From positions 23,622,001 to 23,686,000 of the forward strand of contig CM059443.1 of NCBI GenBank assembly GCA_030390025.1: 64,000 nt of DNA, given 5' to 3'. The DNA comes from Squalus acanthias (lineage: Eukaryota). Made by a program: the position numbers and the translations under genes. The notes under the pieces were generated by a model. It saw only the letters and a program-made list of their open reading frames with translations, had not been told where the DNA came from and made no database searches. Shown here piece after piece: positions 39,101 to 63,423 of this stretch (positions are counted from its first letter, which is position 1; each line of letters opens with the position of its first letter).

Positions 39101-42100
39101 TATCTTTGAAAACCAAAGTAGCGGTTATCTCAAGTCAATGGAGTTCAATGTTTTAGACTCTCTCAACACTAAACTGGTCCGATCAGAAGGGTCCTCCATA
39201 CACGATGGTATATCGGTTCCTTTCCAGCTTCCACCAGGTAAGACACTTCATTGATATGGCACGATCAGTAATTTTATTTGCTTCTAGGATTACATTTTGA
39301 GATAACTCCTAACTATTTGAGCATTGCTCTAGAAATTGGTTTTAAACTTCTTGAGCTTTACCACAAATTAAATGCCTGAAGAATAAACATAATATTGTAC
39401 AACTACAAAGGGGAATAAAAAAACTGCAGTTGCTGGAAATTAAAGTGCTGGAAATAAGAAGCAGCTCAGTCAGCATCTGTGGAGAGAAAAGGCAGGTTAA
39501 CGTTTTGGGTCCTCGGGGAGGGTCTCAGTGCTTTAGGGATTTTGACTGACCTGTGTATTTCTCTCTTTCTGGTTTCATTTTACAATATCTCACCAAGTTG
39601 TACATTTTCTTACACTTGTTCAAATAAGTTTTTCACAGTGATGGACAAATTGCTGTCATTCACTTATTCTCGTGTCACTTCCTCTACGTAACATACATGA
39701 ATAGTTACCTTCCTTTTGGTGGTAGTGCACTATTTTCAGTCACACGGTCTGTCAACATTTGGTTTTGCCATGCTTGCTTTGTTCCCCAACATGTCCGTGG
39801 AGGAGTTCACGCACCACAGGAGAAAAGGGACAGCAATCTGTATAAACTCAAAACAACAGTGGAACTGTGTGCATGCTGGAAGGCTGCAACACAAGCCTTG
39901 GGTTCTGATGAAATTGTGAAACCATTTGGGCGTTGTATATTTCTGTGTGCCCAGTAGAATTACTTGAACTGATCGCTGTTGAATTATATTTAACTGTTGC
40001 ATGTCTAAGAAAACTAACCTATTGAATTGCATTTTGTTTCTGAAGAAGTTTCAAATGAAGCTCGGTTTGTGTTTACTGTGGAAAGCATCGTCATGCCACA
40101 AAAACTGAAAGGAACACTTACATTTATAATAAAAGTAAGTTCAATCAGTGGCTAGTTTTTCTGTTTCTGTATTTTCTTTGCATTATATTCAGTCTTTCAT
40201 ATTTCTATTTTTTTCCCCCCCCAGACAGATGATGGATCTTCTCATGAAAAACTTGATTTTAAGTTACACTTCACTTGCACTTCGTACATGATCACAACGC
40301 CTTGTTATAGGTTTGTTTTCAAATTCTTCTGTTTTACTGGGAAAGTTCTGCTTTATGAAAACTTCAGGGGATCCCAAAACAGCTCAAACAAGAATGATAC
40401 TTCATTATATAGTCATGAGGTGGTGATACCGTTAATATGAACTCACTGAAGTCAGAATAGAAAACAGTCAAATGTGCAATCAACATCTGAAGTGAAAGAC
40501 AGGTTAACATTTTAGGTGAGATCCTTCATTAGAAGTCTGTACTAGCAATTTAGTTGCAGCTAACTAATGACAGACCTGCGGTACTTTGCATCACCCGGTT
40601 TGTTCGATGGTCTTGGGTAAATGATGTACATTTATTCTGTTTCCAGTTATTTGCAGCAGAGTACTTTATGCCATTGAATGTGCACACATCCTAGATCTTT
40701 AATTCCTGTAGTGGGCGGTATGATGTGGTGGCATGCTACTTCAGTTTTACTGGTAAATGAGTAAAGCAGCCAGTGTGGTTCTTGTTAATTTGTGTAAAGC
40801 TATGCTTCTGTAAAACCATAATCCTTCAATAGGAGCATCCTGTTCTTCCCCTTGTTCTATCTTTTCAGTTTAATTCCTGGTATTCGTATCTGGAATAATT
40901 GCTCAACATCGTAATGATATTGGGTTGGAGTGTCTGCTGCAATAAAGTGGCTCCAATGTTTCTTGTACACAGCAACCTTGGTGTTTGAGAGCTGTTGCAA
41001 GGTTATTTTAATATATTGGACAACTGATTAAATTGCAGGAATTGACAAGACTTTGCTAAAGGTCTGTTGATTGAGAACTGAACAAGCAGGAACTTGCACC
41101 GCTGAACTCCAGTCAGGGTCGTTCATGTGTTTAGCTCCTTGTGTAGTACTTGTGACACAACAGCAACATAAACAATAATATAAATAAATCTGATAACTTG
41201 TTGAGCTTATGACCAGTAAACGCAGGCATCATGTGTATTAACTGGGGTATGCCAGCAAATACAGCAATGTAATTTAGTGGTTATGGTACAGGGCAAGCAA
41301 CCCCTGACCAGTTGTAAATTCAGTAAATCTTTTAATTTGTGGGCTGACAGCAGGTGAAAAAATCTCCATGTAAGCTGTTAATATAACCCAACTGGTTCAC
41401 TGCAGTCCTTCAGGGAAGGCAACCTGCCATTCCTTTCTGGCCTGGCCTATATGTGACTCCAGTTCCACTGCGTAGTTGACTCTTAATGCCCAATGAAGTA
41501 GCCTTGCAGGCTTCTCAGTTGTAAAAACAATTACTTCTCAAAAAGGTGCCCCCACCACCTTGGGGAACTAAGGATGGGCAATAAATGTAGCCTTGTCGGC
41601 TACTGAGAACAGCAGCAGGAACTCCGCACCATTCCTGCTTCATGTCTTAAGTGTTCTTCAAACTGGAGCATGGCAAGAATCAGCGGGCACAATGATTCCA
41701 ATATATGGGATAGGTAATGGTAAATTGAGTAAGTGCAGGTAAACTTTACTCCTGATGAGGCTAGTTGTTGGGAAGGTTTGAGACCGAGTAAAACAAATTG
41801 TTTGAGGTCTTTTTTCATTCACAGTCTGAGCTCAAGTTGTGCTTCTTGTGGCTGTATTGACGTTCTCACACTGCCTTACAAATTGGTCCTTTCTTTTTTT
41901 ATTGAAAGCTTCTTGATTACATAGTACCATTTCTAAATGCTTCCTCTTTACTTTTGCAGTGACGCATTTGCAAAATTGCTAGAATCTGGTGAACTAAAGA
42001 TAAGTTCAATAAAAGTAGATGGAATAAGTATTTCCTTCCAGCTCCTTCTGGCAAAGATTTGCTTTCATCACCACTTCTCAGGTACTTGTTTCTAGACACA

Positions 42101-44803
42101 GTTTGCTGCACTCACACAACTGCTTGAGATTCATCTGAATGTAGATGGCCTGTATACAGCTGACTTTGTACTTTTAAGAGTTGGTTGCAAATAGACTGAA
42201 TGTAAATCGCAGCTCTACAAAGTACCAGCTGATCAATTCAGAGCCATTGTGGAACATTCAAAGCCCATAGAAAACACACTTGGTCTTTCACGTGTGAACA
42301 TTGTAGTGGAAACTGAAAAAAACAAGAATTATAATGGCTGAATGCTGTTTTCTACCGTCAGTTTATTTCATGTGGACAAAATGTTTTTGGAATACCAGTG
42401 GCTCCAGCCTGTGTTTTTTTTTGTCTAACCCAATGTACCCTCTTACTGGCAATAATTTGATTTCAACAATGCATGTTTATTTGACACATTCAGTTTCCAG
42501 CGTATGCAATGGTTGTACTTATTGCGTCCAAGCTCTGCCTCCCTCTAATTGGCTGAATCCAGTGCATCTTGTGTGGTACATTTGACACTAACACTAATTT
42601 TTAGTGCCTATGATGCATTCCCAACCTAACCTGTCCATTGTCACATAAAGATGCATCACAATTAATCTCTCACTAAGTAATTGTAAGAGTCACATAATAG
42701 CATTCTTTGTATAGTGGGTTGAGGATTGCCGACGACTCCTATTTGCCTGGAGCTGACACACTGCTCCTGTGAGATTACGGTCTCATTCTTGCCAAAACGG
42801 TGAAGAAAAAAGCTGCCCTAGCAGTTTGAATGTTCATGATGCATTTACAATTGTAGCAATGTACACGTTACTAATGGGTATTACGTATATCCAGCATGCA
42901 TCAGGCCAGCACTGTATTCAATTCATTCTACTTTATATGCTCAGTGTGTGTGTTCCATTTCCATTAGTTACACTGGCATGTTTTTTTTTAAACCGATATG
43001 GGCCAGTTTTTAAGTTGCTACTCATAGTTGATTTTAAAGGCTACTTCAAAATTCTGGCTAGAACGTACTTCACTCTGGTACAGTTACAGAAATCATACCT
43101 GATGTATGTCATTACTTCTAGACAGTGTAGAAAATTAACTCTCAGCTTCTGGACTTGCCCTCCAAATGCGTGTATATTAAGAGATCCATCATTTCAGTAA
43201 AAGGATGACAGAAAAGTGCAATGAAATAGTAACTACGTTTTTTTTTAAAAATGGAATTTCGCTTCGCTAGAAAATGTTTAGTGATTTTGAAATAGTACAT
43301 TGTGGCAGTATGTGTCAAATAATCTGTTTCATTTCATCTTCCCAGTTGTGGAACGAATCAATTCATGTGCATCTATGTATAGCCGTTCTATCCAGGGTCA
43401 TCACATGTGTCTTTTGGTGAAAATGGTGAGTATGAGCCTCGAACTAGAATATTGTGATGCATCCTTGTCAAAAGCCTTTTATTTGTGTATCATCCTTGAC
43501 CGTCATCAGTTTCTGAAAACAAGCATGTGACTCCAATAGTTTAAGCCCATCCACAGAATTTAGTCACGGGTTGTAAGTTGGCTCCTCGAATCAGACAATT
43601 ACTTTTAAGACCTGCTTGAAACTGTCTGCATATCCTGTTTGTGTATCATGCTTATCACACGGAGTCTTGCTTTGGTTGGAGACTTCTGCAGGATGCCACC
43701 ACTATCTTCACTGCTCTTTTTGTAAGGTTGGTTGATAGCAGGGAAGAATCTAGAGATTTATACCTTCGTTTCCAAATGTGCTGCAGAGTAAAACCTACCC
43801 TAATGTTTCTTGGCCTATTTATGCTTTAAAATAGGTTGGTTTGTTTCGGGATCAAGAGGACAGTGTAAACTGGGTTAAGAAAATTCATATATTCTTCAGT
43901 AACTTAAAATTATTTGATTGAAAATTTGCCTCGAAACCACATAATTTTAGGAGTGTTCAGTGTATGTTTTGGGGAGCCTGGAGTACCCATTTAAAAACAG
44001 AATTTTGAAGTTTGTGTAATACTTTGTAAGTACTGTTCTAACCTCCCCAATGCAATTGATTTGAAATAAGTGGTCTGTTCATTCTACTATTAGCAGATAT
44101 CACCATATTGCCCCTAGCTGGAAACCTGTATGAGGCCAGCTGTGTTGGGTCTCCTGGTTGTGAGAGCTATTCTGCAGACGTAGGCAACTTGTCTGCCAGT
44201 GAGAGGCTTCATTGTGGGAGCGAGGATTAGTGTCCCACATGCCAATCCTGGTCTTATTCCCACTATTTTTTTAAAAAAATGTTCGATATACTCCCCTCTT
44301 ATCCTGACTTATACTGGAATAAAGTTCCAAAGCTGTCAGCAGCCCATTGGTATCTCACCCAAGTGGCCATTCTTAAGTCTAGACAGTTGAGTTTCAGGCA
44401 TTTCGACCACAAAGGGCATCACAGCTGAACAAGCACATCAGTCAGTAGTGCCGAGGCTGATTGTAGTACTCCTGCCATTGCCTCAGCACCGACAAATGAT
44501 AAAACTTGGTCTTAATAGCTCAGGGTCACACTGGGCATTTAATTTGCCAGCTTAGTTAGGGGAGCTCAGGATTTCGCCAAGTCCTTTCAAACTGAAATAT
44601 TGAATTTGGAAGCAGACTTTAGGAGATAAATTCTATTTTGATAGTGAACTGACCTCTCCTGCATTTATGCTAAGTGTGATGAATTACAATTTTATTTTAA
44701 ATAGGGTGATAACTCCATCTCTGTGGATGGGAAATGCAACGATTCTACCCTTCTGGGAAACCTACTTGATGAATTGAAGCAGACATTGACAGAAAAGTGC
44801 TGA
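99..44803 (+). CDS. AP3D1: AP-3 complex subunit delta-1, 5'-partial multi-exon gene (26 coding exons in window, 2964 nt spliced)
   Basis: Spliced translation runs from FGALTPLEPRLGKKLIEPLTNLIHSTSAMSLLYECVNTVIAVLISLSSGMPNHSASIQLCVQKLRILIEDSDQNLKYLGLLAM to GDNSISVDGKCNDSTLLGNLLDELKQTLTEKC*. It matches vertebrate delta-adaptin from memory. All junctions are GT-AG and phases are consistent. Confidence 0.97.
1900..1949 (+). CDS. AP3D1: AP3D1 exon (TSAMSLLYECVNTVIA)
   Basis: ctttgcAG ... G|GTaata, 50 nt. Confidence 0.95.
2547..2895 (+). mobile_element. Deu-domain SINE (AmnSINE1/SacSINE1-like)
   Basis: Core gatcccatggcactatttgaagaagagcagggga...caaattggct; related copies at 21826-22140, 47107-47400 (-) and 61445-61860 (-). 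Confidence 0.7.
2905..4110 (+). mobile_element. Degenerate L2-clade LINE, RT region
   Basis: Frame-broken motifs LDPIP, NYRP..KVLE and FHVYADDTQVYLS. Confidence 0.75.
4110..4590 (+). mobile_element. Old CR1 LINE 3' fragment
   Basis: gttaggccacagttaaaattgtgtccagttttgg (VRP.L..CVQFW) and RGHKLK-like tail region. Confidence 0.55.
4867..4916 (+). CDS. AP3D1: AP3D1 exon (VLISLSSGMPNHSASIQ)
   Basis: ctacAG ... CAG|GTaaca, 50 nt. Confidence 0.95.
5125..5457 (-). mobile_element. CR1/HER1 LINE 3' end
   Basis: Reverse complement matches the 3' end of the CR1 at 52100-52447. Confidence 0.85.
5600..5648 (+). CDS. AP3D1: AP3D1 exon (LCVQKLRILIEDSDQN)
   Basis: ctattcAG ... T|GTaagt, 49 nt. Confidence 0.95.
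6195..6340 (+). CDS. AP3D1: AP3D1 exon (LKYLGLLAMSKILKTHPKSVQSHKDLILQCLDDKDESIRLRALDLLYGM)
   Basis: cttgcAG ... ATG|GTaatt, 146 nt; inside ORF 6167..6349. Confidence 0.97.
7951..8099 (+). CDS. AP3D1: AP3D1 exon (VSKKNLMEIVKKLMIHVDKAEGTTYRDELLTKIIDICSQSNYQYITNFEW)
   Basis: ttggtAG ... TG|GTgagt, 149 nt. Confidence 0.96.
8295..8525 (+). CDS. AP3D1: AP3D1 exon (YISILVELTRLEGTRHGHLIAAQMLDVAIRV...AAWICGEFSE)
   Basis: acacAG ... GA|GTatgt, 231 nt; inside ORF 8233..8796. Confidence 0.97.
9005..9155 (-). mobile_element. CR1 3' tail fragment
   Basis: ataggagtaggccatccagcccc...ccatatcccttgat. Confidence 0.75.
9266..9497 (+). CDS. AP3D1: AP3D1 exon (HLQEPNQTLEAMLKSKVTTLPGHIQAVYVQN...ADLEVQER)
   Basis: tttccAG ... 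CGG|GTatgt, 232 nt. Confidence 0.96.
11409..11554 (+). CDS. AP3D1: AP3D1 exon (ASCILQLIKYIQKLQTKDVPVAEEVMALFAGELNPVAPKAQKKVPLPDG)
   Basis: ttttccAG ... GG|GTgaga, 146 nt. Confidence 0.96.
11860..12200 (+). mobile_element. Old SINE-like interspersed repeat (family not named)
   Basis: Shares ctagg(c/t)tcacacatgaaaaatga(c/t)cactt...agaactgtacccc with 6530-6660; related copies at about 9760-10030 (-), 12530-12760 (-), 19680-19990 and 44290-44560 (-). Confidence 0.55.
13400..13550 (-). mobile_element. L1/Tx1 LINE RT fragment
   Basis: ORF 13371..13703 contains LAAPVPSEEFLQAIDSFQ..GPGPDGFLIEFYEK..APEL, the L1-type PGPDGF..EFY motif. Confidence 0.65.
14317..14461 (+). CDS. AP3D1: AP3D1 exon (LDLDAWINDAPSESSSDDESTKKTIFHEEEQ...DEDELAR)
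   Basis: ctcttcAG ... AGG|GTaaga, 145 nt. Confidence 0.95.
14464..16965 (+). mobile_element. 5'-truncated degenerate CR1 LINE (endonuclease remnant + RT + 3' tail)
   Basis: VVYRLPNS and IIGDFN (APE endonuclease); PLFKKG; AFDKMPH and GIPHGSVLGPQLFIIYINDFD (RT); LGLYSLEFRRMRGDLIETYKIL; many frameshifts. Confidence 0.92.
17100..18190 (+). mobile_element. Degenerate L2 LINE 3' half
   Basis: CADNTWLY (YADD-like), NLGVLFDLELS, TKTAYFHL, TSSLDYSNALL, KLQLVQ. Confidence 0.72.
18590..18980 (+). mobile_element. L2 LINE 3' fragment
   Basis: cacctatcatcccagtcctcactaacctttattgg...gacttcaaaatcctcatc (PITPVL..L.W..FKIL). Confidence 0.55.
19359..19430 (+). CDS. AP3D1: AP3D1 exon (RREVRKQEQANNPFYIKSSPSPQK)
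   Basis: catcctAG ... AAG|GTgagt, 72 nt; conserved NNPFYIK hinge motif. Confidence 0.95.
20421..20496 (+). CDS. AP3D1: AP3D1 exon (NYQDASGVEHIPVVQIDLTVPLRVP)
   Basis: gatttcAG ... G|GTaatt, 76 nt. Confidence 0.95.
21263..21459 (+). CDS. AP3D1: AP3D1 exon (GMPLSDQYLKLEEERRQ...HDSLHTESDEDIAPVHHVDIITEEMPE)
   Basis: gtgcacAG ... GAG|GTtagt, 197 nt. Confidence 0.95.
21826..22140 (+). mobile_element. Deu-domain SINE
   Basis: tcttttggatgagatgttgaaccaagg...gaagaagagc...ctggtcatttatc; homologous to 2547-2895. Confidence 0.65.
22140..22446 (+). repeat. CT-rich low-complexity / degenerate microsatellite
   Basis: Runs of (CT)n, (CG)n and T. Confidence 0.7.
22848..22968 (+). mobile_element. CR1 3' tail fragment
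   Basis: aagggatatg...gatcagccatgatcttattgaatggcggagcaggcttgaagggccgtatggcctactcctgctc. Confidence 0.8.
23250..23323 (+). CDS. AP3D1: AP3D1 exon (NALPSDDDDKDPNDPYKALDIDLDK)
   Basis: ttgtttAG ... AA|GTaagt, 74 nt. Confidence 0.95.
26048..26201 (+). CDS. AP3D1: AP3D1 exon (PLTDNEKLPVRTHRVTEKKSPEVE...KDKEKR)
   Basis: ttttaaAG ... AGG|GTaaac, 154 nt. Confidence 0.92.
26549..26855 (+). mobile_element. HE1-type V-SINE (tRNA head, V core, HER1/CR1-like tail)
   Basis: Pol III A box tggcatagtgg and B box ggttcgaatcc; V core gtggagtttgc..ttctccccgtgtctgcgtgggtttcctcc; tail gatgggccgaaatgg...ctgcactgt. Confidence 0.88.
27405..27538. mobile_element. hAT-type MITE, 134 bp
   Basis: Perfect 14-bp TIRs CAATGTTCCCTTTA / TAAAGGGAACATTG; perfect 8-bp TSD TACTCAAC at 27397-27404 and 27539-27546. 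Confidence 0.9.
28128..28259 (+). CDS. AP3D1: AP3D1 hinge exon (KSREKVSKKHKKSYENAENEHAAPKEEMITPTSKEEANEKPTGE), phase 0-0
   Basis: polypyrimidine tract + ggcacAG acceptor, GAG|GTgagt donor, 132 nt, open frame, K/E-rich like its neighbours. Confidence 0.82.
28770..29660 (-). mobile_element. Degenerate L2 LINE
   Basis: Minus-strand TEAIVFDPRHKLRT, AYFYL and TIPILSW remnants; abuts a + strand L2 3' piece at 28565-28760. Confidence 0.72.
29784..29837 (+). CDS. AP3D1: AP3D1 hinge exon (GSDLDFWLSNDPVQSKSQ), phase 0-0
   Basis: ttcctgttaAG ... CAG|GTcagt, 54 nt; DLDFWLS motif of long vertebrate AP3D1 isoforms. Confidence 0.9.
30355..30620 (+). mobile_element. tRNA-headed SINE with LINE-derived tail
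   Basis: agtggtg...gagtttaaatcccaccatg head; tail ggaatgggcaatagatgtagcc; second copy at 41265-41600. Confidence 0.62.
30800..30877 (+). CDS. AP3D1: AP3D1 hinge exon (PEPLRNEVASEPEETLKEKEDKEEDA), phase 0-0
   Basis: ctttttgcAG ... GCA|GTaagt, 78 nt, acidic. Confidence 0.82.
31550..32830 (-). mobile_element. Degenerate L2 LINE with a nested CR1 tail (32205-32360)
   Basis: Minus-strand LLDLYAAFDRVDHTI; interrupted by acagcacagaaacaggccattcggcccaaccagtccatgccggcg... Confidence 0.72.
34180..34320 (+). CDS. AP3D1: AP3D1 exon (KSSKHKKKKHKKDKSKEEKKSKKKKHHSDEEAPESVQNGSLDDEPLP)
   Basis: ctgcattAG ... CCG|GTatgt, 141 nt. Confidence 0.92.
35125..35760 (+). mobile_element. Old CR1-like LINE 3' region
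   Basis: ALERVQRRA, RLNELGLYILEK.R..G.LIEMYKIMKGL. Confidence 0.65.
35797..35844 (+). CDS. AP3D1: AP3D1 exon (PMSSYYLLAENSYVKM)
   Basis: ttttacAG ... ATG|GTgagt, 48 nt. Confidence 0.95.
36247..36940 (+). mobile_element. CR1/L2-superfamily LINE 3' end
   Basis: VTIDQKLNWTSHI, LSTVYKAQVRSVMQYTPLAW, LDSIQDKAARLI, WNSLP; tail gggcaattagagatgggcaataaatgctggccttgccagc. Confidence 0.85.
37030..37175 (-). mobile_element. CR1 3' tail fragment
   Basis: aggagcaggccactcggcccttcgagcctgctccaccattcaat. Confidence 0.78.
37756..38110. mobile_element. Tc1/mariner (Tigger/pogo-like) MITE, 355 bp
   Basis: 26-bp TIRs CAGGAAACTCTCTTTTAACCGGCACC / GGTGCCGGTTAATAAAGAGTTTCCTG (2 mismatches); TA on both sides. Confidence 0.88.
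39048..39237 (+). CDS. AP3D1: AP3D1 exon (MCDIQGNLQDGSQVVVSVIFENQSSGYLKSMEFNVLDSLNTKL...VPFQLPP)
   Basis: ttactAG ... G|GTaaga, 190 nt; ear domain. Confidence 0.95.
39415..39580. mobile_element. Decayed Penelope terminal repeat
   Basis: tgctggaaat...cagcatctgtggagagaaaa...gttaacgttt, same family as 57050-57185; another remnant at about 40470-40535. Confidence 0.6.
40046..40134 (+). CDS. AP3D1: AP3D1 exon (EVSNEARFVFTVESIVMPQKLKGTLTFIIK)
   Basis: ttctgaAG acceptor (tandem AAG-AAG), AAA|GTaagt donor, 89 nt. Confidence 0.92.
40225..40310 (+). CDS. AP3D1: AP3D1 exon (TDDGSSHEKLDFKLHFTCTSYMITTPCYS)
   Basis: ccccAG ... AG|GTttgt, 86 nt; preceded by a 90-nt intron. Confidence 0.95.
41265..41600 (+). 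mobile_element. SINE sharing its 3' tail with the LINEs at 36247 and 53645
   Basis: acccaactggttcact..gtccttcagggaagg..cctggcctatatgtgactccag...caccacct..ggatgggcaataaatgtagccttg. Confidence 0.65.
41960..42081 (+). CDS. AP3D1: AP3D1 exon (DAFAKLLESGELKISSIKVDGISISFQLLLAKICFHHHFS)
   Basis: cttttgcAG ... G|GTactt, 122 nt. Confidence 0.96.
43346..43425 (+). CDS. AP3D1: AP3D1 exon (VVERINSCASMYSRSIQGHHMCLLVKM)
   Basis: cttcccAG ... ATG|GTgagt, 80 nt. Confidence 0.96.
44705..44803 (+). CDS. AP3D1: AP3D1 terminal coding exon (GDNSISVDGKCNDSTLLGNLLDELKQTLTEKC*)
   Basis: aaatAG acceptor; TGA at 44801-44803. Confidence 0.95.
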   Translation, partial: GDNSISVDGKCNDSTLLGNLLDELKQTLTEKC

Positions 44804-51086: not shown

Positions 51087-51191
51087 TCCTGCCACACAGA
51101 TGGTTTGCCAGAGTGTCAAACATTAGGGAGGTACTGAAGCTTTTACAGCAGAAGTAAGTTAGAACTTGTGGCTCCACACTTCCCCTAATTC

Positions 51192-52592: not shown

Positions 52593-52908
52593 AAGTCTTA
52601 ATTTCACAATCTCACACACCATAAAGCTCTTCTCCACCTTAAGCACCCTCACAATGAATGGCACTAGCGAGATATTTTAACAGTTGGCTATTTTTTTTTA
52701 AACTCCAATCTGTATAACTGAGCGAATAATTTGGCAAGAATTGCAATTAAAAAGATGACAACCTTCAACCTCTTTCTGAATGATATTGGTAATTAAAATT
52801 TAAACGGATAGCTTACTGTAGTTATGGAAAATCACATTCATTGTCACCTACTGATGATACAAGTAGATTTGGTTTTATTGGTGCCTGGTTGTTCCTTTTA
52901 AAACAGAC

Positions 52909-52980
52909 CACTTCCTGCTAACAGAATGCGTAGTTAAATACTGTGCTTTGTTCCACCTTTCAGTTTCGGGGGGAAATCAC
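52909..52980 (+). promoter_or_regulatory. Candidate immune-type proximal promoter: ETS site, ISRE/IRF site and adjacent kB-like site
   Basis: CACTTCCTG at 52909-52917; CTTTCAGTTTC at 52957-52967 (GAAACTGAAAG on - strand); GGGAAATCAC at 52971-52980; all within 160 nt upstream of ATG 53065. Confidence 0.5.
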
Positions 52981-53064
52981 AGGGCTTGTGAGGGCTGCTT
53001 TAGAGGATGCAACATTTACTTTGAAAAGTTTATATTGAAAGCGGTACTTTGAACACACATTGGG

Positions 53065-53149
53065 ATGATCCGTCAACATCCTAGACGTGTAATGGTGCCT
53101 CTTAGAAGGGTATTTTTATTAATTACTTGGTGGATGTCCACAGTACAAG
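53065..53149 (+). CDS. Ig receptor leader exon (MIRQHPRRVMVPLRRVFLLITWWMSTVQ|G)
   Basis: In-frame ATGs at 53065 and 53092; basic N-region and hydrophobic core; CAAG|GTagga phase-1 donor matches the next exon. Confidence 0.78.
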
Positions 53150-56100
53150 GTAGGAACAATTTTACAATTGTCAAATTATTTTTTTAACTCCAAGCAGTGT
53201 GAAATATATTTTTATAAATAGGTTATCAAAACTATAGAATCATAAAAATTTCTGCTCAGAAGGAGATCATTTAATCCTTCATGCCCGTGCTTGCATTAAC
53301 GCCACATTGTAACTTCTGCTCTTCTGTTTGATGTTAGAATAATCTTTGCTAATACATGGTAAAGGCCTTGTTTTGTGGCACTCAAACAAGTGTGTAGAAT
53401 TATGTTGTGTGAATGATTAATGAAAACTAATTGATTATGCTATCTCATATTTTGGTGTATAGAAAATATTTCAACTGATTAATTTTGTGTTCACCCCTCT
53501 CTGAATATGATTAGTGATTAGTCTAAGCTTTTATAACAAATAAATTGACTTTTATGAAAAGTTGAATCAAAACTTGTGTTCCACTAAAGTAGCTGAACTA
53601 AGTTGTAGAATCATAGAATATTACAGCACAGAAGGAGGCCATCTAAACATTCATTCCCTCCACCACCGGCGTACCGTGGCTGCAGTGTGTACCATCTACA
53701 AGATGCACTGCAGCAACTCGCCAAGGCTTCTTCGGCAGCACCTCCCAAACCCGCGACCTCTTCCACCTAGAAGGACAAGGACAGCAGGCGCATGGGAACA
53801 CCACCACCTCCAAGTTCCCCTCAAAGTCACACACCGTCCTGACTTAGAAGTATATCGCCGATCCTTCATCGTTGCTGGGTCAAAATCCTGGGACTCCCTC
53901 CCTAACAGCACTGGGAGTACCTTCACCACACGGACTGCAGCGGTTCAAGGCGGCGGCTCACCACCACCTTCTCGAGGGCAATTAGGGATGGGCAATAAAT
54001 GCTGGCCTTGCCAGCGACGCCCACATCCCATAAACTAATTTTTAAAATGTATTTTTAATTTGCAACTGTACTGGCTCTCTAAGATCTGTACAATTAGTCC
54101 AATCCCTTTCCGTTTACCTATACTCTCTCAATTTCTATTTCAACAATGTATCCTATAGACTCTTTCACTACTGCTTCTAAAGGACATTCCATTTCCTAAC
54201 ACTCTTCGTTTAAAAAAAATTGTTACTAACCTCTTCCTTTGGTGCTGATCTTAAATTTATGCCCTTTTAATTACCAACTCGCCAAACTTTGAAATTAATT
54301 TTTCCCTATTTATCTCATCAAAACCTTGCATAATTTTTACCACCAGCAGATCTTCTCAACCTTTTTCTGTACTATTGAAAAGAGCCCCAGTTTCTCTAGT
54401 CTCCCTTTGTAACTAAAGACTCTCATCCCTGGTATCATTCTAATGAAACTCTGTTGCACCATATCCATGGTCTTGACATCAGTAAGGTGCCCAAAACCAG
54501 ACATTACATTCTAAATGTAGTCTAACCAACGACTTGCATGTTTTTGGCATTACATCTTTGCTTTTGTATTCTATACCCCTTTCTATAAAAGCTAGGATCT
54601 CGTATACCTTTTTAAAGCTTCAGCAACTTGTTCTCCCACTTTTAAAGATTTGTGCTTCTGAAAATCTAAGTCTTTCTGCTCCTCTACTCCTTTTAAAGTT
54701 TTGCAATTGAGTGTATAGTTCCTCTCCTTATTCATCTTTTGGATTTGGATGATCAGCCATGATCTCATTAATGGCGGAGCAGGCTCGAGGGGCCGAATGG
54801 CCTACTCCTGCTCCTATCTTCTATGCTTCTATCTTCCCAAAATATATCACCTCACATTTCTCATTTTCATTTGAGCTCTATCTGCCCAACGTGCCACCCC
54901 GTCTGTCTTTCTGAAGTTGCTTCATGGTCAAATGCACACACTCTTTTTGTGCAAATATTTTCATTGTGCCACTATACCCAAGTCCAGATCATGCATATAT
55001 ATTGATAAGAGCACTGACCCAGGGGGACACCATTGTTTGCATCTCTCCAGTTGTAAGAAACCTTACCTTTAGGCCTCTCTTACTTGTCCAACAGGTTAGA
55101 GCCGACACCATTGGGTTACAGTAAAAAATTTATTTTGAGAAGTAAAACAAAGGTCGGTACATGCAAGTATCTAAGCAGTAATTAACAAAACAGAGCAAGA
55201 AATTATATTACCTGGTCTGATTTAGGTAGGGGTCATAACTATGGATGCCAGTTGCCTCTTCCTGTCTATGACTGTCGTCTTCGCCTCGTGAATGCCTCTA
55301 CGCTAACAAAAGCCCAAAGCACGTATTTGTCCAGATGTACAGTTCCTTGTGGCTCCCCCTTATCGCTCTTTTAGTCTCGACACAATGTTTTTCTGTTCAT
55401 GCAGATGATGACTCACTGTATGGACCTTGAAGATATCAGCTTTAACTGTAAGAAACTTCTGTTTCAACATCATCTTTTCATGCATTCTAAAGAGTAAAAT
55501 AAAATTATACACTAACAAAACTTAATACTAAACTGCAATCTAGCAAAGCTTAATACTGAAAGTAAAAAAAAAGACCATATTTACACACACTCTTAATATC
55601 CATTAACCACTACTTTGTTTTCTGTCCTTTAGCCAACTTTCTATCCTTGCTACCCCATTCCCTTTAATACCACGTGTTAATTCTATTAGCAAACCTTACT
55701 TTATCAAACGCCTTTTGAAAATCCATATGCACAGCAATCCACTGCATTTCCTTTATCAATTTGCTCCATTCTTTCCTCAAAGAACTCATTACTTGACATT
55801 TATCCAATGAAAAAAATCTAACCAGTATATAGTAAAATATTACAACTAATTAACCTTCACCCAATTTATATTTCACAAAGTATCCAATAAATACATAGTC
55901 AGTTTTATTCATGTTTTTCTCCTCCATTTTAGGGCAGAATCAAAACAGGTGTGAACTAAAACTCTCTTATTCAAAATCCACAATCTACGCTATGGAAGGT
56001 AGTACGTTTTCTCTCTCGTGCAACGCTATCTACTGTGCGAACAGTTCCTCTGAACCAGAATTGAATTGGTGTAAGCTAACATCAAAAAGTTGCATGTTGC

Positions 56101-59100
56101 TCCCTCAGCTGGATGAATATGTCAATCGGACCACGGACATCCCACGTAACGGGTCCGGTACAATGACTTCTTTGCTTTGGATTTCTCCTGCTCACATTAA
56201 CCACAGTGGACATTATCAGTGTCAGGGCAGGCTCCCCAGCTACAGCCTAGGCACTGTGATGGGTCACATGATAACAGTTTTGGTGATTGGTAAGTGTCAA
56301 AACATTGGGCATAACAAGGTATCATTTTAAGCCAGTTTTAAAAGGTATAGTATTAAATATACAGCATAGTATTTAAAAATTACACTGTATTGTGCAAGGC
56401 TACAAATCTACTCCCTGAATATTTCCTTTACACTCTTGGCAATTATTGTTGCAATTTTCAACCAAGAATATACGGTACGATACAATCTTGGTTAAAAGCT
56501 TTCAGTTCAGCCATATCTGAAACTGTCATGTATGCCTCCTGCACATATCTGCTATGTAACCACCAGAACAGAGGTGTCCATGTTTAAGAGCTTTGTTGGC
56601 AATGCAAGAGCCTGTATTTCTCCATTTAGCTAATAGCTGACAGCAGCCGTATATGTGGCTTAATTTCCTGTACATTATTTTAGAAATGGAGTTCAGATCA
56701 CGTGATGCATCTGTGAAATGAATATGATCGGTGTAGTATTGGCAGCTTTTAGATGGTGTATGTTGTATCTAGGCAATGGTCATATACTCATTTAGTTTAA
56801 GATGTGAGATACCCTTACAAAGTCAAATTGAGATGCCTGTATTTGTGTTTGAGTATGTGGAGTGATTTAGCACTTTTAATGTTTATAATGATCATCTGGG
56901 TCAGTTAATGCAGGAAGTTCCCCTTTAAAATCAATTCCCTTTAAAAGATAATTAAATCTATTATCACAGTTTATTCAGTAACTGGTAAGCATTCATGAAC
57001 CTATGACATCATTATCAAAGTTATAGATGAGTCACACACAAACTAGAATGCAAAAGCAAAATACTGCGGATGCTGGAAATCTGAAATAAAAACAGAAAAT
57101 GCTGGAAATAATCAGGTCAGGCAGCATCTGTGGAGAGAGAAACAGAGTTAACATTTCAGGTTGATGACCTTTCATCAGAACTGGAAGAAGTTAGAGATGT
57201 AATAGCTTTTAAGCAAAAACAGAGGCAGAGAAAGGGGGAAGGGGAGGAAAGAACAAAGGGTGAGGTCTGTGAAAGTGTGTAAGGCAGGAGTGATTAAATG
57301 ACAAAAAGAGATGATGGTGCAAGGCAGAAACAGGTGGTAATGGGACAAGTAAAGAAACAAAAGATGAGTCTTGAGGAGTTGGAAACCCTATCATGGATCT
57401 GGGAGGGAAGGGATGGGTGTAGAAGTGCAGGAAATGGGATGGACACGGTCGAGGGCCCTGTCAACCACAGTGATGGGAAATCCTCAGTTGAGGGAAAAGG
57501 AAGTCTTGTCTTATAAGCACTGGTGTGGAAGGTGGCACGGTCAGAGCAGATGCAATGGAAACCGAGAAACTGGGAGGCTGGAATAGAGTCCTTGCAGGTA
57601 GCGGGGTGGGAGGAAGAGTCATCAAGGTAGCTGTGGGAGTCGGTGGGCTTATAGTAGATATTCATTGACAGCCTATCCCCAGAAATAGGAGATGGAGAAG
57701 TCGAAGAAGGGTAGGGAAGAGCCAGAGATGGACCATGTGAAGGTGAGGGAGGGGTGGAAAATGGAAGCAAAGTTGATATTTTCCAGTTTGGGGTGAGAGC
57801 AGGAAGTGGTACCAATACAGTCATCAATGTACCGGGAAAAGAGTTGAGGGAGGGGATGAGTAGACTGGAACAAAGAATGTTCTACATATCCCATGAAAAG
57901 GCAGGCATAGCTAGGACCCATACAGGTTCCCATAGCAACACCTTTTATTTGGAGGAAGTGAGTGGAGTCAAAGGGGAAGTTGTTCAATGTAAGAACATGT
58001 TCAGCCAGGCAGAGGAGGGTGGTGGTGGATGGGGTCTGGTTGGGCCTCTGTTCAGGAAGAAGCAGAGGTCCCGCAGGCCGTCATGGTGGTGTAGAGGGAC
58101 TGGACATCCATGGTGAAAAGGAGATGGTTAGGGCCAGGAAACTGTTAAAGGGCTAACACTAATTAGCCCTGGCATCCTGCTCAAGCTTGAGCTGAGGTTT
58201 GTTAACCTCATCTGATCTAGGACCACAAGCACCTCTGACACATTACCTGCTTTGTTCTCTGCCTCTCCCCTACTACTGTTGAGCCCCTAATCGAGGTCTT
58301 TATCACCTTGAGGCTTGACTGCTCCAGTGTTCTCCTTGCTAGCTTCCTAACATCCACCCTGTACTAACTGTAACTTATCCAGATCACTGCCTCCCATGTC
58401 CCCTCTCTAATGATTTCCTGCACGCCGGTCGCCAACATCCTTGCAATGTCCCACTGTCTTCTCGTGCCCTAGCAGACTGATTAGAAGATCTACATTATCA
58501 TTTTAAAATCCTTCATGGCTTTGCCCCACCACACATCTGTGATTTCCTCCAGTTTAATGTCCCTGCATGTACCCTAAGCTCCTCTGACTGGATTAATCCT
58601 CATTCCCAATATCTTTGTTCCAGCAACAGCAGCCATTCTTCCAGCCATACTCTCCCTGACTTCTGGAACTGCTTCCCCAGAACCCTCCATCTCGACACCT
58701 CCCTTCGCCCTCTGAAACCATTCTCTTTGAATTGAATGGCTTCATTCCCACCCAGCTTCTATTTTCACCTTTTCCTCCCCTCTTCGCTAACAAGTACTCT
58801 GCGACATTTTCTATGCAAGAGGCCCAACAGAAATAAAAGTTGCTAAATTCAATAATTGAGGGTAATGTCTCCAATACTTAGTTCCTGTTAATAACCTCAT
58901 GTACTCAGACACAAAAAATGTACATTATTTAATCTTATGATCACAAATAGTTTTATTTTTGAATCTTAAGATTTCAAGATGATTATTCCCAATTCCAAAG
59001 TGAGAGGACTAAGAGGAGGCTCCCTAAAGCTTCAGTGTATTGTGAAACTTGATAAGCATTTGAATAACACACTCAGAGTATTTTGGACAAAGGATAATGA

Positions 59101-61353
59101 AAACTGTAGCCAGTTGATGTCAATAAACAGAGGCAACATCAGCAACCAAACTGTGGCAGCAGACAGACGTGATTTTACACTTACTCTCTCCAACCTCCAA
59201 AATGAAGATGCTGGAGTTTACTCCTGCTGTGCTACCACATATTTGTCGTCACAGATCTTTGCAATGGGTTCGATAAATGTGCAAGTTCATGGTGAGTTGC
59301 ATTCATTTTACTAGTACTTTTTAAAAATACATACCTTCCAATTCCACGTATTAATATAACATTGTTGTCAGTCACTCGGGTATCTGTGCTTTCAGTTAAG
59401 ATTTCTATATATGAGAAACATCATGTCTTGTCCAGTCTCACTTCTTCATTTGTTATGCCATCAATCACCTATATTTGACCATTGATTAGAATGTAGAAAT
59501 ATGTTGCGTTCTCTGTGATGATCTATGGGTACATTTTATATTGATTTTTCATAGCATAAGGCTATTTTTTAAAGTATAAGTTTGAATGATAGAAGAATAA
59601 ATCTTCTTACATCAAGAATGTACAACAGCACCATCGACAAACAAAGCTTAATCAGTGTGAAGCAATTGAGTACGAGGAGCAGTTCATTCAGGAGCAGTGT
59701 TTCAGTTGGGAGCAGCAGTTTGGTTTGAGTGGTTGGCATCCAACCATTCCTGTTCATCCTCTCTTCTCCTCCAAGTAGCTCAAGTATATTGAGACCTCGG
59801 AGTGTCCAGTGTTTAAGGGGAATGGTGGCAAGTAAAAAATGGTACTCCAAATCACTTGGCAAAATCACTTGACAATTGGGTGAAGCAGAGAAGCAAAGAA
59901 TAGTTGTGCTTGGTGCTGGATTGGCTTGGAAAGAGACAACACATGGGATGCCTCCAGGAGCAGTGCTGGGTCCATTGATGTTTATAATGTACATAAATTA
60001 CTTGGCTGAGGTAAGGGCGGAGGTGGGCAATGTTGTGGAGGTCGAAATAAATAATCTTGGTAATGGATGCGATGCAGGCTTCGAAGCTAATCCTAAGGTT
60101 TCTGAAAAGGTGACTGGGGAAGAGGATGCAGTCAATGGCAAAGAAATGAGTTTGTGGTGAGGGCTGAAAACAATGGCTTCAGTCTTCCCAATGTTCAGTT
60201 GGAGGATGTTGTGACTTACCCATGACTTAACATCAAACAGGTAGTCTGACACCATGGAGGTGGACATGGTATCGAGAAAAGTGGAGAGATAGAGCTGGAT
60301 GTTATCGGCATACATATGGAATCTGTCACCAAAGGATAGCATGTAGATGAGGAAGGGGGTGAGGCCAAGGATAGATCCTTGAATGACTCCAAAGATGACC
60401 GTGCAATTGCAGGACTAGAAACCATTACTGCAGAAGTACTGGTTGCATTCAGACATCTAAATTTCTATGATTCTACATGCAACTCCCAGTCTCGTTTGTA
60501 CTTCTGGGAGTTGTTGGGCTATGCCATTTCCATCTTTTTCACTTCTGTTTCCCTTATCTCCATTTCTGTCTCTGCTCCCCCATTACTTCAGCAGTTATTT
60601 CAGGACAGTTTCACTCAGCCAGGACTAGGGTTGCCAACTCTGGTTGGACGTATTCCTGGAGATTTTGTCACGTGACCGCCTGACTCCAACCGCCGCGCTC
60701 CCAGCATTGGTTGCCTGACGTGCATCCTCACGGAGCACCACCTTCCCATGCCAGTTCAGAAATAATGTTACCCGAATGATGATTCTTGACTCTCGGACAA
60801 ATAGCCTTTTTTCCACATCTCCAATATTTTTATAACTAAAAAGCAAAAGTGTTTAAAAGAAAATGGAAAAAAAAACACTCTTTTTAATGCCCCCAATGAT
60901 TTTTCTTCCTGGTTGCTGGCAGCAGTGTCCTGGAGATTAATCCTCAATTCCTGGAGACTCCAGGTCAATCCTGGAGGGTTGGCAACCCTAATCAGGACTC
61001 GTGATTGGCAGGCCTATCAGGCTAAGACATTGCTCTCCCCGCCCACCCTCCAGAGTTGGTTGGCATGATGAAAGGCAGGTTAAATCATTTGTGCAGATTC
61101 TACCTTAAAATATGCCATCTATGGAGGCAGAAATGACACTGGACATCATTCATCACAACTTGAAACCATGCTAACCCTCAAAATTTAAAATGTTTTTACC
61201 GATCATTTTTTCACCTTTACGTCATTACTATTTTCTTATTTTTCCAGCATTCAACTATGACCTGTTAAACTTTCTTCCACTCATCATCTGCAAAGCTATT
61301 GCCTTGGTGGTTATTATGGCAGTTGGCCAAACTCAGGTTTGCAAACAGAAATG
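53065..61353 (+). CDS. BTLA-related two-Ig-domain type I transmembrane receptor (leader + Ig1 + Ig2 + TM; 289 codons through the TM exon)
   Basis: Four exons (85, 357, 321, 106 nt) joined by phase-1 GT-AG introns, the classic IgSF layout, giving an uninterrupted frame. Confidence 0.88.
53607..55790 (-). mobile_element. Old CR1 LINE fragmented by nested insertions
   Basis: Tail agaatcatagaatattacagcacagaaggaggccat at 53607-53642; body resumes at about 54095 and runs to gccttttgaaaatccat (MDFQKAFDK on - strand). Confidence 0.65.
53645..54032 (+). mobile_element. LINE 3' end, same family as 36247-36940
   Basis: Near-identical to 36565-36940 (LNIHSLHHRRTVAAVCTIYKMHCSNSPRLLRQHLP). Confidence 0.88.
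55933..56289 (+). CDS. Ig domain 1 exon, BTLA-type six-cysteine Ig domain
   Basis: ccattttAG ... G|GTaagt; RCELKL..EGSTFSLSCNAIYCAN..PELNWCKLTSKSCMLL..HSGHYQC..GHMITVLV parallels human BTLA SCDVQL..AGDPFELECPVKYCANRPHVTWCKLNGTTCVKL..DNGSYRC..SHSTTLYV (recalled, not searched). Confidence 0.92.
57050..58150 (-). mobile_element. Penelope-like element (RT remnant + 3' terminal repeat with hammerhead motif)
   Basis: NNFPFDSTHFLQIKGVAMGTCMGPSYACLFMG, FSRYIDDCIG and IYYKPTDSHSYLD are PLE RT motifs; terminal repeat at 57050-57185. Confidence 0.88.
58160..58780 (+). mobile_element. Degenerate L2 3' fragment
   Basis: ITLRLDCSS.LLA-like remnant and L2 3' region. Confidence 0.55.
58971..59291 (+). CDS. 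Ig domain 2 exon (V/I-set)
   Basis: gaatcttaAG ... G|GTgagt; GGSLKLQC..VFWTKD..FTLTLSNLQNEDAGVYSC..INVQV contains the canonical B-strand Cys, C-strand Trp and DxGxYxC. Confidence 0.92.
59860..60440. mobile_element. CR1 RT fragment (+, 59860-60000) joined to an L2 fragment (-, 60000-60440)
   Basis: KQRIVV..GMPPGAVLGPLMFIMYINYL on +; FHMYADNIQLYLS..LQLNIGKTEAIVF on -. Confidence 0.7.
60626..60990. mobile_element. hAT (Tip100-like) non-autonomous element, 365 bp
   Basis: TIRs TAGGGTTGCCAAC / GTTGGCAACCCTA; imperfect 8-bp TSD GCCAGGAC / ATCAGGAC; subterminal cctggaga repeats. Confidence 0.85.
61248..61353 (+). CDS. Transmembrane exon (AFNYDLLNFLPLIICKAIALVVIMAVGQTQVCKQK)
   Basis: Long polypyrimidine tract + tttccAG; phase-1 entry matches Ig2; about 22-residue hydrophobic stretch with a central Cys-Lys; TG|GTaaga donor. 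Confidence 0.85.
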
Positions 61354-61444
61354 GTAAGAGTGATATTAAGTCTGATATTTCTTAAAGGACTCACAACTGT
61401 CAGAGGGACTTAGCCTATAGTTGTTTTGTTTATGATGAAAAAAA

Positions 61445-61860
61445 ATTATAGCACCTTTCACAACCTCAGGATGTCCAAAAGCACCTCACAGCTAATGAAG
61501 TACTTTTTAAGCAGTGGTCATTGTTGTAATTTAGGGAAACACAGCAGCCAGTTTGCACACAGCAAGGGCCCACAACCAGCAATTAAATAAATGATTAGAT
61601 AATCTGGTGATGGTTGAGGGATAAATGTTGACCAGGACTCCAGGCGAACTCCTCTGCTCTTCTTCAAATAGTGCCACAGGATCTTGTGCATCCACCCGAG
61701 ACAGGGCCTTGGTTTTACAGCTCATCCAGAAAGCAGCACCTCTGACAGTGCAGCACTCCTGCAGTACTGAACTGAAGTGCCAACATAGATTATGTGTTGA
61801 AGTCTCTGGAGTGGGGCTTGAACTCACAACCTTCTGACTTAGAGGCAACCAAGCTGCCAA
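61445..61860 (-). mobile_element. Near full-length Deu-domain SINE
   Basis: Reverse complement has a tRNA-like head (tcagaaggttgtgagttcaagccccactccaga), the Deu core and the tail. Confidence 0.78.
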
Positions 61861-62496
61861 AGCTGACACATTGGGGGTCACAAAAGGAAGATTTTATATA
61901 CAAGTTATATTGGTATAGTTCTAAAATGGATTTCGGTCTCTTTTCTCAAATTTAAAATGGCTGTTCAGAGACATGTTGTCTAATTTACAGCGATCCACAA
62001 CCATGTCAACTTGACGTTTTTAAAATGTCAAAGCCTCACTGCATCTGCCCTGGGAATATATTAATTCCCTGACGAGATAACCTGTTTGCTGAATAAAAAG
62101 GGCATTATTAATATACCCTGGCCTTTAATTAAAAAGTTTTAAAAATTCTCTGTATTTTTTCAAAGCAGAGAGCTAAGGATCCAAGAGAACTTAGGCCAAA
62201 GCTGGTGGTTTTTATTAAAGCTCATTACAAGAAAATTGAAAGTTTGTAGAGGTTTTACTATGCTTACAAAAATTAAAAGTTAGTTGAAAATGTTGTCTCC
62301 AATACCATTGGATATTCCATTTTCAGCCTGTTTCGTGTAAGCACATTGCCAGTGCACCCATGAAGTACACCGTGCTAGATTTTTACTCCTGTTTGCCCTG
62401 CCCTACTTTTTAGTGACATGGACAAGGCATTTAATTTTATCATGAAGGTTTAATCGCCCTTTCTTTGTGCTGATCCAGTACTCAAATCTCAGCTAT

Positions 62497-62612
62497 AACA
62501 ACAGAAAACGCTGGAAAAACTCAGCAGGCCAGGCAGCGTCCGTGGAGAGAGAAACAGAGTTAACGTTTCAGGTCGAAGACCTTTTGTCAGAACGAAGACC
62601 TTTCGTCAGAAT
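62497..62612 (-). mobile_element. Penelope-derived 116-bp mini-element with hammerhead motif and 15-bp TSD
   Basis: Flanked by TCAAATCTC(A/C)GCTAT at 62482-62496 and 62613-62627. Confidence 0.8.
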
Positions 62613-62670
62613 TCAAATCTCCGCTATGGGCAAATTGAAGATGGGAAATGAATTAATTCAGATCTTAATA

Positions 62671-62812
62671 CAAAAGGCAAAATACTGCGGATGCTGGAAA
62701 TCTGAAATATAAACAGAAAATGCTGGAAATACTCAGCAGGCCAGGCCAGAAATGTTTCTCTCTCCACAGATGCTGCCTGACCAGCTGAGTATTTCCAGCA
62801 TTTTCGGTTTCT
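62671..62812. mobile_element. Inverted (fold-back) pair of Penelope termini
   Basis: gaaaatgctggaaatactcagcaggccaggc (62716-62746) versus gcctgaccagctgagtatttccagcattttc (62775-62805). Confidence 0.78.
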
Positions 62813-63326
62813 TATCTGTGCCCAATGACTCAAATCTGGCAGTTTTTATAGACTCTGTGTAGCAGAGAGACAGATGTGAGTTCCTATTGAGGCAACCACT
62901 GAATATAATTATACGTCTTTAAAAGCATTCAACATTTTAAAAAAATTCTGAAATGCGCAGGATTCTTAGGCAGTGAAGACACTCTGATTTCTCCCATTCT
63001 GTCGAATCGATTTTGTAATGATCACAGAGGCAGTGATAGTACAATTGGCCCCATGCAGATTAAGATATTAAATTGTGGACAGCCTTAATACTAGTGCACA
63101 CCAGGTGCACGAGCACAGATGGCTTAGTGGCTTTTTTTAAACCAAATTTTGTAGTCTTTGTTATATAGAAATGTTGGTGTTGTACACATCATGCTAATGA
63201 ATCCATTTTGATTTTTAATTTTTTATAACATTTTTCACAATCGGTATATTTTTTGTATCACCTGACATCTAAAAAGTCTTACAATTAGATGGAGAAAAGG
63301 GAATAAAATATATTCATTTGTTTCAG

Positions 63327-63423
63327 ACAATGGCAGAAATCTGAAGATGCAACACTGGAGTTCTGTGAAGAAGGAAATGAATACAAACCTTGTCTATTAG
63401 AAATGCTGCAACACTTGGCATAG
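63327..63423 (+). other. Candidate terminal exon of the Ig receptor
   Basis: ttcatttgtttcAG acceptor at 63325-63326. Direct splicing from the TM exon forms TG|A = stop. Other small exons (62166-62204, 62327-62336) cannot be excluded. Confidence 0.4.

Follow-up and report, generated by a model that had tools for sequence, protein, structure and literature searches.

We analyzed a 64,000-nucleotide stretch of the Squalus acanthias genome (assembly GCA_030390025.1, contig CM059443.1, positions 23,622,001 to 23,686,000; hereafter “the window”) and found in it a five-exon gene for an apparently undescribed receptor of the BTLA family with an activating-type membrane anchor, the novelty being provisional. 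The encoded 289-residue protein consists of a leader, a first immunoglobulin (Ig) domain of BTLA type (Ig1), a second Ig domain (Ig2), a transmembrane (TM) segment with a central lysine, and a tail of ~9 residues. On balance, we favor the reading that this BTLA-family protein couples to a DAP12-type adaptor and is activating.

The gene is real and intact: its five coding exons lie on the forward strand, all introns are GT-AG (phases 1, 1, 1, and 2), and a donor scan yielded a product of 289 residues without an internal stop. Exon 1 (53065..53149) holds the start codon and a signal peptide predicted from composition (28 codons plus 1 base), and ends on a phase-1 GT donor. Exon 2 (55933..56289) encodes Ig1, with six Cys at protein positions 35, 58, 63, 75, 82, and 125 and the motifs YCAN (56031) and WCKL (56067), while exon 3 (58971..59291) encodes Ig2, a V/I-type domain with four Cys (170, 193, 233, and 234) and a YxCC motif. 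Exon 4 (61248..61353) provides a very short stalk, the TM helix (residues 260–280, from 61262), and the nine-residue tail, and ends with the stop codon’s first two bases; the TM Lys codon (61292..61294) is at position 11 of the 21-residue TM. The first base of exon 5 (63327..63423) completes the stop, and the remainder is 3′ untranslated sequence here, yet matches the coding tail of other elasmobranch models. Leader, six-Cys Ig1, Ig2, TM Lys, and the 289-residue spliced product had all been proposed in a first-pass annotation of this DNA and are borne out by the exon model and motif positions, as is the start of its gene span (53065..63423); its end is not, since the last intron interrupts the stop codon, so that the coding sequence ends at 63327 and 63423 is the next in-frame stop beyond. 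The protein carries eight N-glycosylation sequons, and the nine residues after the TM include no Tyr. The Heptranchias orthologue matches exons 1–5 in order (tblastn E 6e-10, 2e-56, 2e-55, 6e-12, and 7e-5), and such ordered matching of predicted shark orthologues to the five exons is far above chance. Repeats found within the window do not extend into any of the five exons. For splice alternatives, we combined each GT donor around exon 4 with 10 pyrimidine-rich acceptors; the longer products had no orthologue support, and orthologue tails back the 61353/63327 junction. Because read-through of intron 4 gives a product of only 290 residues, the tail is short with or without this splice.

Relatives were collected by three word-seeded searches and one exhaustive search with Ig1 only (26 matches at E 0.001). 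The resulting family comprises 13 proteins besides the window’s gene, from six shark species (Heptranchias, Heterodontus, Cetorhinus, Chiloscyllium, Stegostoma, and Rhincodon), three ray species (Mobula, Hypanus, and Hemitrygon), the sturgeon Acipenser oxyrinchus, and the caecilian Rhinatrema, plus proteins P0008 and P0019. Thirteen of these 14 sequences have a TM, the exception being the Heterodontus isoform X2 model. The closest named relative is from Heptranchias (sevengill shark; 79.6% identity over 289 residues), while P0008 and P0019 are 49% and 20% identical to the window’s protein. All 11 species-labeled relatives are annotated as “uncharacterized” or “hypothetical”, in line with the first-pass view that the gene had not already been characterized. 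We trained a family hidden Markov model (HMM) on P0008 and six named shark and ray proteins. Among 24 other proteins, the sturgeon protein, P0019, and the caecilian protein scored highest, each matched end to end (121, 90, and 80 bits), and the next best reached 51 bits on Ig1 only. Since these three proteins had been retrieved by Ig1 alone, the agreement of their Ig2 and TM with the model speaks independently for one family; the caecilian Ig2 taken by itself hardly rises above unrelated domains on this model (23.9 versus 23.5 bits).

The sturgeon and caecilian members refute the idea of a cartilaginous-fish speciality and, if these relatives are orthologues, would make the family older than the split of cartilaginous and bony fishes and conserved since before it. 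The gene appears single-copy and conserved. Absence from teleosts or amniotes cannot be derived from the exhaustive Ig1-only search, whose weakest listed match scored 35.7 bits, i.e., above the 29.5 bits of human BTLA itself. On reedfish chromosome 12 (NC_041405.2; PMC10751288 supplement, seen in part), only ap3d1 is annotated between its neighbors klf13-like and dot1l, with no Ig gene adjacent to it. This over-extended model spans 1.1 Mb (141.06–142.20 Mb) across 15 other annotated genes; it is probably mis-joined and could mask a neighboring gene. A search of the ESM Atlas returned generic Ig clusters only. The zebrafish name si:dkey-52l18.4 led only to an endothelial-progenitor marker with no link found, and was dropped.

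Ig1 very probably belongs to the BTLA family. Its six Cys parallel those of human BTLA (CD272) at 34, 58, 63, 72, 79, and 115, which form the disulfides 34-63, 58-115, and 72-79 (PMC5464627, partial text), and the matching spacing suggests the same three-disulfide pairing in the shark domain. Among the family Ig1 domains, 12 of 13 have all six Cys and the sturgeon domain has five. The YC and WCK motifs of BTLA are likewise present, with 23–24% identity to human BTLA. In sequence searches of the PDB, the best single-domain match of Ig1 was BTLA (E 5e-6; 28.7 bits versus 22.2 for mouse pIgR domain 5). An AlphaFold model of Ig1 built from family sequences only (predicted local distance difference test score, pLDDT, of 80) gave BTLA the highest TM-scores among the Foldseek matches listed (target-normalised 0.78–0.83, root-mean-square deviation (rmsd) 2.5–3.3), and VIA placed BTLA first among 48,161 chains (Z 13.7, rmsd 2.5, 103 aligned). 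In profile–profile comparison, the family Ig1 score was 94.8 with four BTLA-like domains checked against the PDB, versus 47.2 with seven domains of pIgR/TREM type. Overall, both sequence profile and fold place Ig1 nearer to BTLA than to the remaining Ig families, clearly so in the profile–profile scores and TM-scores. Of the proteins used for comparison, seven were labeled BTLA-like by motif, with P0026, P0027, and P0013 confirmed against the PDB and P0010 giving no BTLA match there at E 1e-4; the pIgR/TREM labels of P0014 and P0030 are our own reading of their sequences, with no search behind them.

Several results weigh against this placement. One alternative is that Ig1 derives from the pIgR/CD300/TREM lineage (or a shark MDIR-like one), a group rich in TM-Lys receptors, that its BTLA look is convergent, and that the protein is simply one more activating member of that group. 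We regard this as improbable. Whole pIgR heads the PDB sequence lists for Ig1, mouse pIgR domain 5 is level with human BTLA on the family profile (42.0 versus 42.1 bits), and the WC-x-C disulfide pattern is common to BTLA and the V domains of pIgR domain 5, CD300, and TREM. Trees, all of which were built without mammalian BTLA, depend on sampling: with wider sampling, excluding one long-branch domain of P0029 and two of P0020, the family Ig1 domains formed a clade (support 96/98) and grouped with the six-Cys domains (95/95), while a reduced tree, which additionally left out seven Ig2 rows and six six-Cys domains that were unverified, gave 66/71 and was unresolved. A pIgR/TREM grouping of Ig1 was not rejected in approximately unbiased (AU) tests (p 0.20 and 0.35). 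The fold searches are also less one-sided than the TM-scores, as BTLA ranks 3–10 by Foldseek E-value, behind two neuroplastin chains, and in VIA many unrelated Ig domains tie with it, lying within 1 Z unit. What speaks against a pIgR-type origin is the first (A-strand) Cys, the counterpart of the partner of Cys63 in the BTLA 34-63 disulfide (PMC5464627, partial text): all 13 family Ig1 domains have it, and it is missing at the matching position of mouse pIgR domain 5, as it is from the CD300 and TREM V domains. Furthermore, human pIgR domain 5 reaches only 25.6 bits on the family profile, the profile–profile scores are two to one for BTLA, and no pIgR occurs among the Foldseek and VIA matches listed for the Ig1 model. 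The first-pass proposal of a BTLA paralogue accordingly stands on Cys pattern, PDB match, fold, and profile scores, with the trees varying and the alternative grouping unrejected.

Given its two Ig domains, charged TM, and lack of a tail with immunoreceptor tyrosine-based inhibitory or switch motifs (ITIM, ITSM), the protein is not a BTLA orthologue. BTLA has a single-Ig ectodomain, whereas the shark gene has two Ig exons (one Rhincodon isoform model contains Ig1 only), and the nine-residue shark tail has none of the Grb2, ITIM, or ITSM sites of BTLA. The 5′ neighbor of the shark gene is AP3D1, and its 3′ neighbor lies outside the window; human BTLA is located beside CD200 on chromosome 3 at 112.5 Mb (PMC10795259, partial text). 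Ig2 is a V-set domain by Pfam (E 1e-10), and its YxCC motif is shared by all 13 family Ig2 domains but occurs in 0 of 5 other second domains, so far as these sequences go a family-specific feature of a domain that appears to have no close known relative. Fold searches with Ig2 found generic Ig matches only, with BTLA absent among the matches listed. An origin of Ig2 by duplication of Ig1 was unsupported (BLASTP E 0.26, i.e., no similarity; profile score 59).

All 13 TM-bearing family sequences, at 20–80% identity, have a mid-membrane Lys in the same alignment column, so that its conservation in relatives, left as a check by the first-pass annotation, can now be affirmed. With TMs delimited by a sliding window, this Lys falls at position 7–12 in 11 of 13 sequences and at positions 6 and 13 in the remaining two; no TM Arg occurs in any of the 13 TMs. 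A Cys immediately precedes the Lys in 11 of 13 sequences (61289–61294 for the Cys and Lys codons here), and is a possible acylation or inter-chain disulfide site. A pattern scan of the 13 family tails (7–36 residues) for ITIM, ITSM, and ITAM (the immunoreceptor tyrosine-based activation motif) found none, confirming the predicted short tail without an ITIM, while the control in the same scan, the BTLA-like P0026, had two motifs (ITIM and ITSM) and an uncharged TM. Each of the three frames of the window’s last exon has a counterpart among the annotated tails, one in Chiloscyllium, another in Heptranchias and the rays, and the third in Stegostoma and Rhincodon. At the junction, the window’s gene has a stop codon and Heptranchias, the rays, and P0008 have Arg; the Cetorhinus protein ends at the same residue as the window’s. 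As judged from these comparisons, the last exon is an old one whose reading frame has not been kept, although the tails compared are predicted gene models and part of the frame variation could be annotation error. Because the exon is read in three frames across species, the tail would be unconstrained and carry no signal.

A receptor of this kind, without a signaling tail of its own, would depend on a partner. TM Lys plus adaptor is a textbook mechanism, and under its Lys–Asp assembly rule the central Lys would most likely pair with the two Asp of an ITAM-bearing adaptor dimer, for which DAP12 (TYROBP) is the best fit. The protein would then be a BTLA-family receptor of type I membrane topology, in which Ig1 serves as a BTLA-type ligand-binding domain and Ig2 as a spacer or second interaction domain, and ligand binding would lead to cell activation via Syk-family kinases. 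Coupling to some acidic adaptor is likely, and adaptor binding, an activating output, and leukocyte expression are what we infer from this layout. Central TM lysines occur in T cell receptor (TCR) chains too, where they pair with CD3, and for that reason sequence does not fix the adaptor.

The choice of DAP12 draws on the position and identity of the basic residue. Human DAP12 partners have a basic residue at TM position 7–12 and the type I partners all have a central Lys, FcR-gamma partners use an N-terminal TM Arg, and one Lys within a polyleucine TM is enough for DAP12 assembly (PMC1440944, partial text). The same Lys/Arg split separates NKp44 from NKp30 and NKp46, which are Arg-bearing partners of CD3-zeta/FcR-gamma (PMC6514059, partial text). 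As far as sequence patterns can tell, the TM Lys and short motif-free tail match the DAP12-partner pattern, and the FcR-gamma-associated receptors differ in the N-terminal Arg that the shark family TMs lack. Of the adaptors listed in the first-pass annotation, DAP12 is accordingly the one retained, with FcR-gamma and CD3-zeta fitting less well. By analogy, the protein probably works like the DAP12-coupled type I receptors (KIR2DS2, NKp44, TREM, and activating CD300), which share the central TM Lys and mostly a short tail; it differs from them in its BTLA-type ectodomain and in appearing to be a conserved single-copy gene, not one that branched recently from an inhibitory gene within a cluster.

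Two points count against DAP12 in particular. Our literature search found no paper showing a DAP12 in cartilaginous fishes, and outside mammals, PMC1440944 (partial text) names it only from amphibians and bony fishes. It is conceivable, though fairly unlikely, that the Lys of this BTLA-family receptor pairs with a different acidic chain, be it DAP10, a CD3-type dimer, zeta/FcR-gamma, or a partner of its own, with co-stimulation or a partner-defined output. CD3 dimers share the relevant chemistry, TCR-alpha binds DAP12 weakly, and specificity depends on ectodomain sterics too (PMC1440944, partial text); the Cys before the Lys might also hint at a further assembly feature. The Lys/Arg division among human partners set out above pulls the other way, as the family has the central Lys and no N-terminal Arg.

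The protein could instead be a non-signaling decoy or modulator, with membrane and secreted forms competing with BTLA for ligand and the Lys serving endoplasmic reticulum retention or turnover. A soluble splice form of human BTLA is known (PMC10795259, partial text). Exons 2 and 3 are symmetric (phase 1-1), so in-frame skipping is possible, and the gene models include a Rhincodon form that skips Ig2 and the Heterodontus isoform X2 without the TM exon. The latter is the only TM-less form, one predicted model among 14 family sequences, and a Lys fixed at one TM position from sharks to caecilians amid diverging neighbors is better explained by a binding partner. We consider the decoy role very improbable.

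In human BTLA, the segments in contact with HVEM are residues 35–43 and 118–128 (PMC5464627, partial text). Within 35–43, the shark protein agrees at only 1 of 9 residues, which counts against an HVEM-type ligand; within 118–128, it keeps a His aligned to BTLA His127, a hot spot of the BTLA interface. P0026, a bona fide BTLA-like protein, is likewise divergent in the 35–43 segment, and a PD-L1/BTLA axis reportedly exists in zebrafish, going by the title of one study; for these two reasons HVEM binding is undecidable from sequence, and we name HVEM as a tentative candidate ligand only.

CD160, whose main form is GPI-anchored (glycosylphosphatidylinositol), had no match in any PDB sequence or fold list for the shark protein. 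TMIGD2 lies on human 19p13.3, as does AP3D1. NKp30 has a TM Arg where the shark protein has Lys. CD160 is nonetheless a functional precedent for a second HVEM reader: in mammals, this Ig receptor also binds HVEM, in competition with BTLA (PMC10795259, partial text). The CD28 family, including TMIGD2/CD28H, shares with the shark protein that its members are Ig-superfamily co-receptors found in sharks, and differs in having one V domain and tail Tyr motifs (PMC11599192, partial text), as opposed to two Ig domains and no tail Tyr. Neither AP3D1 nor BTLA-like genes occur in the available text or nine supplements of that survey.

The first-pass annotation had also suggested a paired inhibitory/activating BTLA-type system in sharks. 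This found no support: our searches retrieved no named shark inhibitory BTLA, the window contains no second Ig gene, and Ig1 is only 29% identical to P0026, the sole ITIM/ITSM-bearing BTLA-like protein retrieved. Classic paired receptors have a highly similar, closely linked inhibitory twin, and the shark protein does not appear to be one of them, as far as the window and our searches for shark relatives go. If a pair exists, it is of the ancient CD28/CTLA4 kind and not a KIR-like twin. A tandem paralogue or inhibitory twin within the window was ruled out by an Ig HMM scan of all 64 kb, which found exons 2 and 3 only.

Among the proteins retrieved, P0010 and P0028 have two six-Cys Ig domains, a TM Arg near the N-terminal end of the helix, and a 4-residue tail, i.e., an FcR-gamma-type layout, and are possibly, on this pattern, a second activating BTLA-related family. 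As noted above, P0010 had no BTLA match in the PDB, and the TM of the P0010/P0028 type is only moderately hydrophobic. P0013 has two near-identical BTLA domains in tandem, and P0025 has two six-Cys-type domains followed by a third that may resemble CD200R. BTLA-type domains would thus seem to be often duplicated and shuffled.

The gene’s upstream neighbor is part of AP3D1 (6110..44803, forward strand), as the first-pass annotation had it: among 20 open reading frames (ORFs) scanned, Pfam Adaptin_N hits three exons and Pfam AP3D1 one, and the PDB match is AP-3 delta (E 4e-40). The apparent final AP3D1 coding stretch (44705–44800) presumably encodes the AP3D1 C-terminus. The ATG of the BTLA-related gene lies 8.3 kb downstream of AP3D1 on the same strand. 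Window GC content is ~40%. About 100 bp 5′ of the ATG is a core resembling the interferon-stimulated response element (ISRE; 52958..52967, forward strand), one of nine such sites in the window and weak, possibly a chance match, as the consensus was sought only after the sequence had been inspected. It sits with a generic ETS-like core and a one-mismatch kB-like site at 52908–52981, within 160 bp of the ATG. In the upstream motif scan, only the ISRE core fit a preset pattern rare in the window (the kB pattern had 102 matches), and the preset PU.1 pattern had no match. A 388-codon reverse-transcriptase ORF (51189–52352; Pfam RVT_1, E 3e-21), a remnant of a long interspersed nuclear element (LINE), lies ~700 bp 5′ of the ATG, with similar remnants near 15.1–16.9 kb and 45.9–46.3 kb. 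Introns 2 and 3 hold degenerate reverse-strand ORFs (57297–58080 and 59572–60414) without a Pfam match at E 0.01, presumably retroelement-like by resemblance. Rfam and tRNA scans of the window gave no matches.

Our literature search found no description of the gene, of five family LOC identifiers, or of a shark BTLA; older subscription work (Bernard et al. 2007, with “multiple BTLAs” in its title) might mention such genes, and the lack of a match for six gene names in one supplement of PMC3964593 is uninformative. A TM Lys with an adaptor is a known arrangement, and its combination with a BTLA-type ectodomain would be what is new. A more far-reaching scenario, which we put forward as speculation and think rather unlikely, starts from an activating BTLA paralogue already present in the first jawed vertebrates. 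It would have shared BTLA’s own ligand, HVEM, and made with BTLA an on/off pair of the CD28/CTLA4 type; sharks, rays, sturgeon, and amphibians would have kept it, and teleosts and amniotes would have lost it, and activating BTLA forms would have arisen maybe twice (the Lys type described here and the Arg type of P0010 and P0028).

If the reading of an activating, adaptor-coupled BTLA relative is correct, the gene would be a rare long-lived activating receptor, at variance with KIR- and NKG2C-type receptors, which are mammal-restricted offshoots of older inhibitory genes (PMC1440944, partial text). It would also add an unrecognized member to the ancestral co-receptor set drawn up in recent surveys of the CD28 family and PD-1 (PMC11599192 and PMC12151841, partial texts). 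Taken together, an activating BTLA relative retained all the way from sharks to amphibians would mean that this checkpoint began as a two-way system. BTLA as it is known today is an inhibitory checkpoint.

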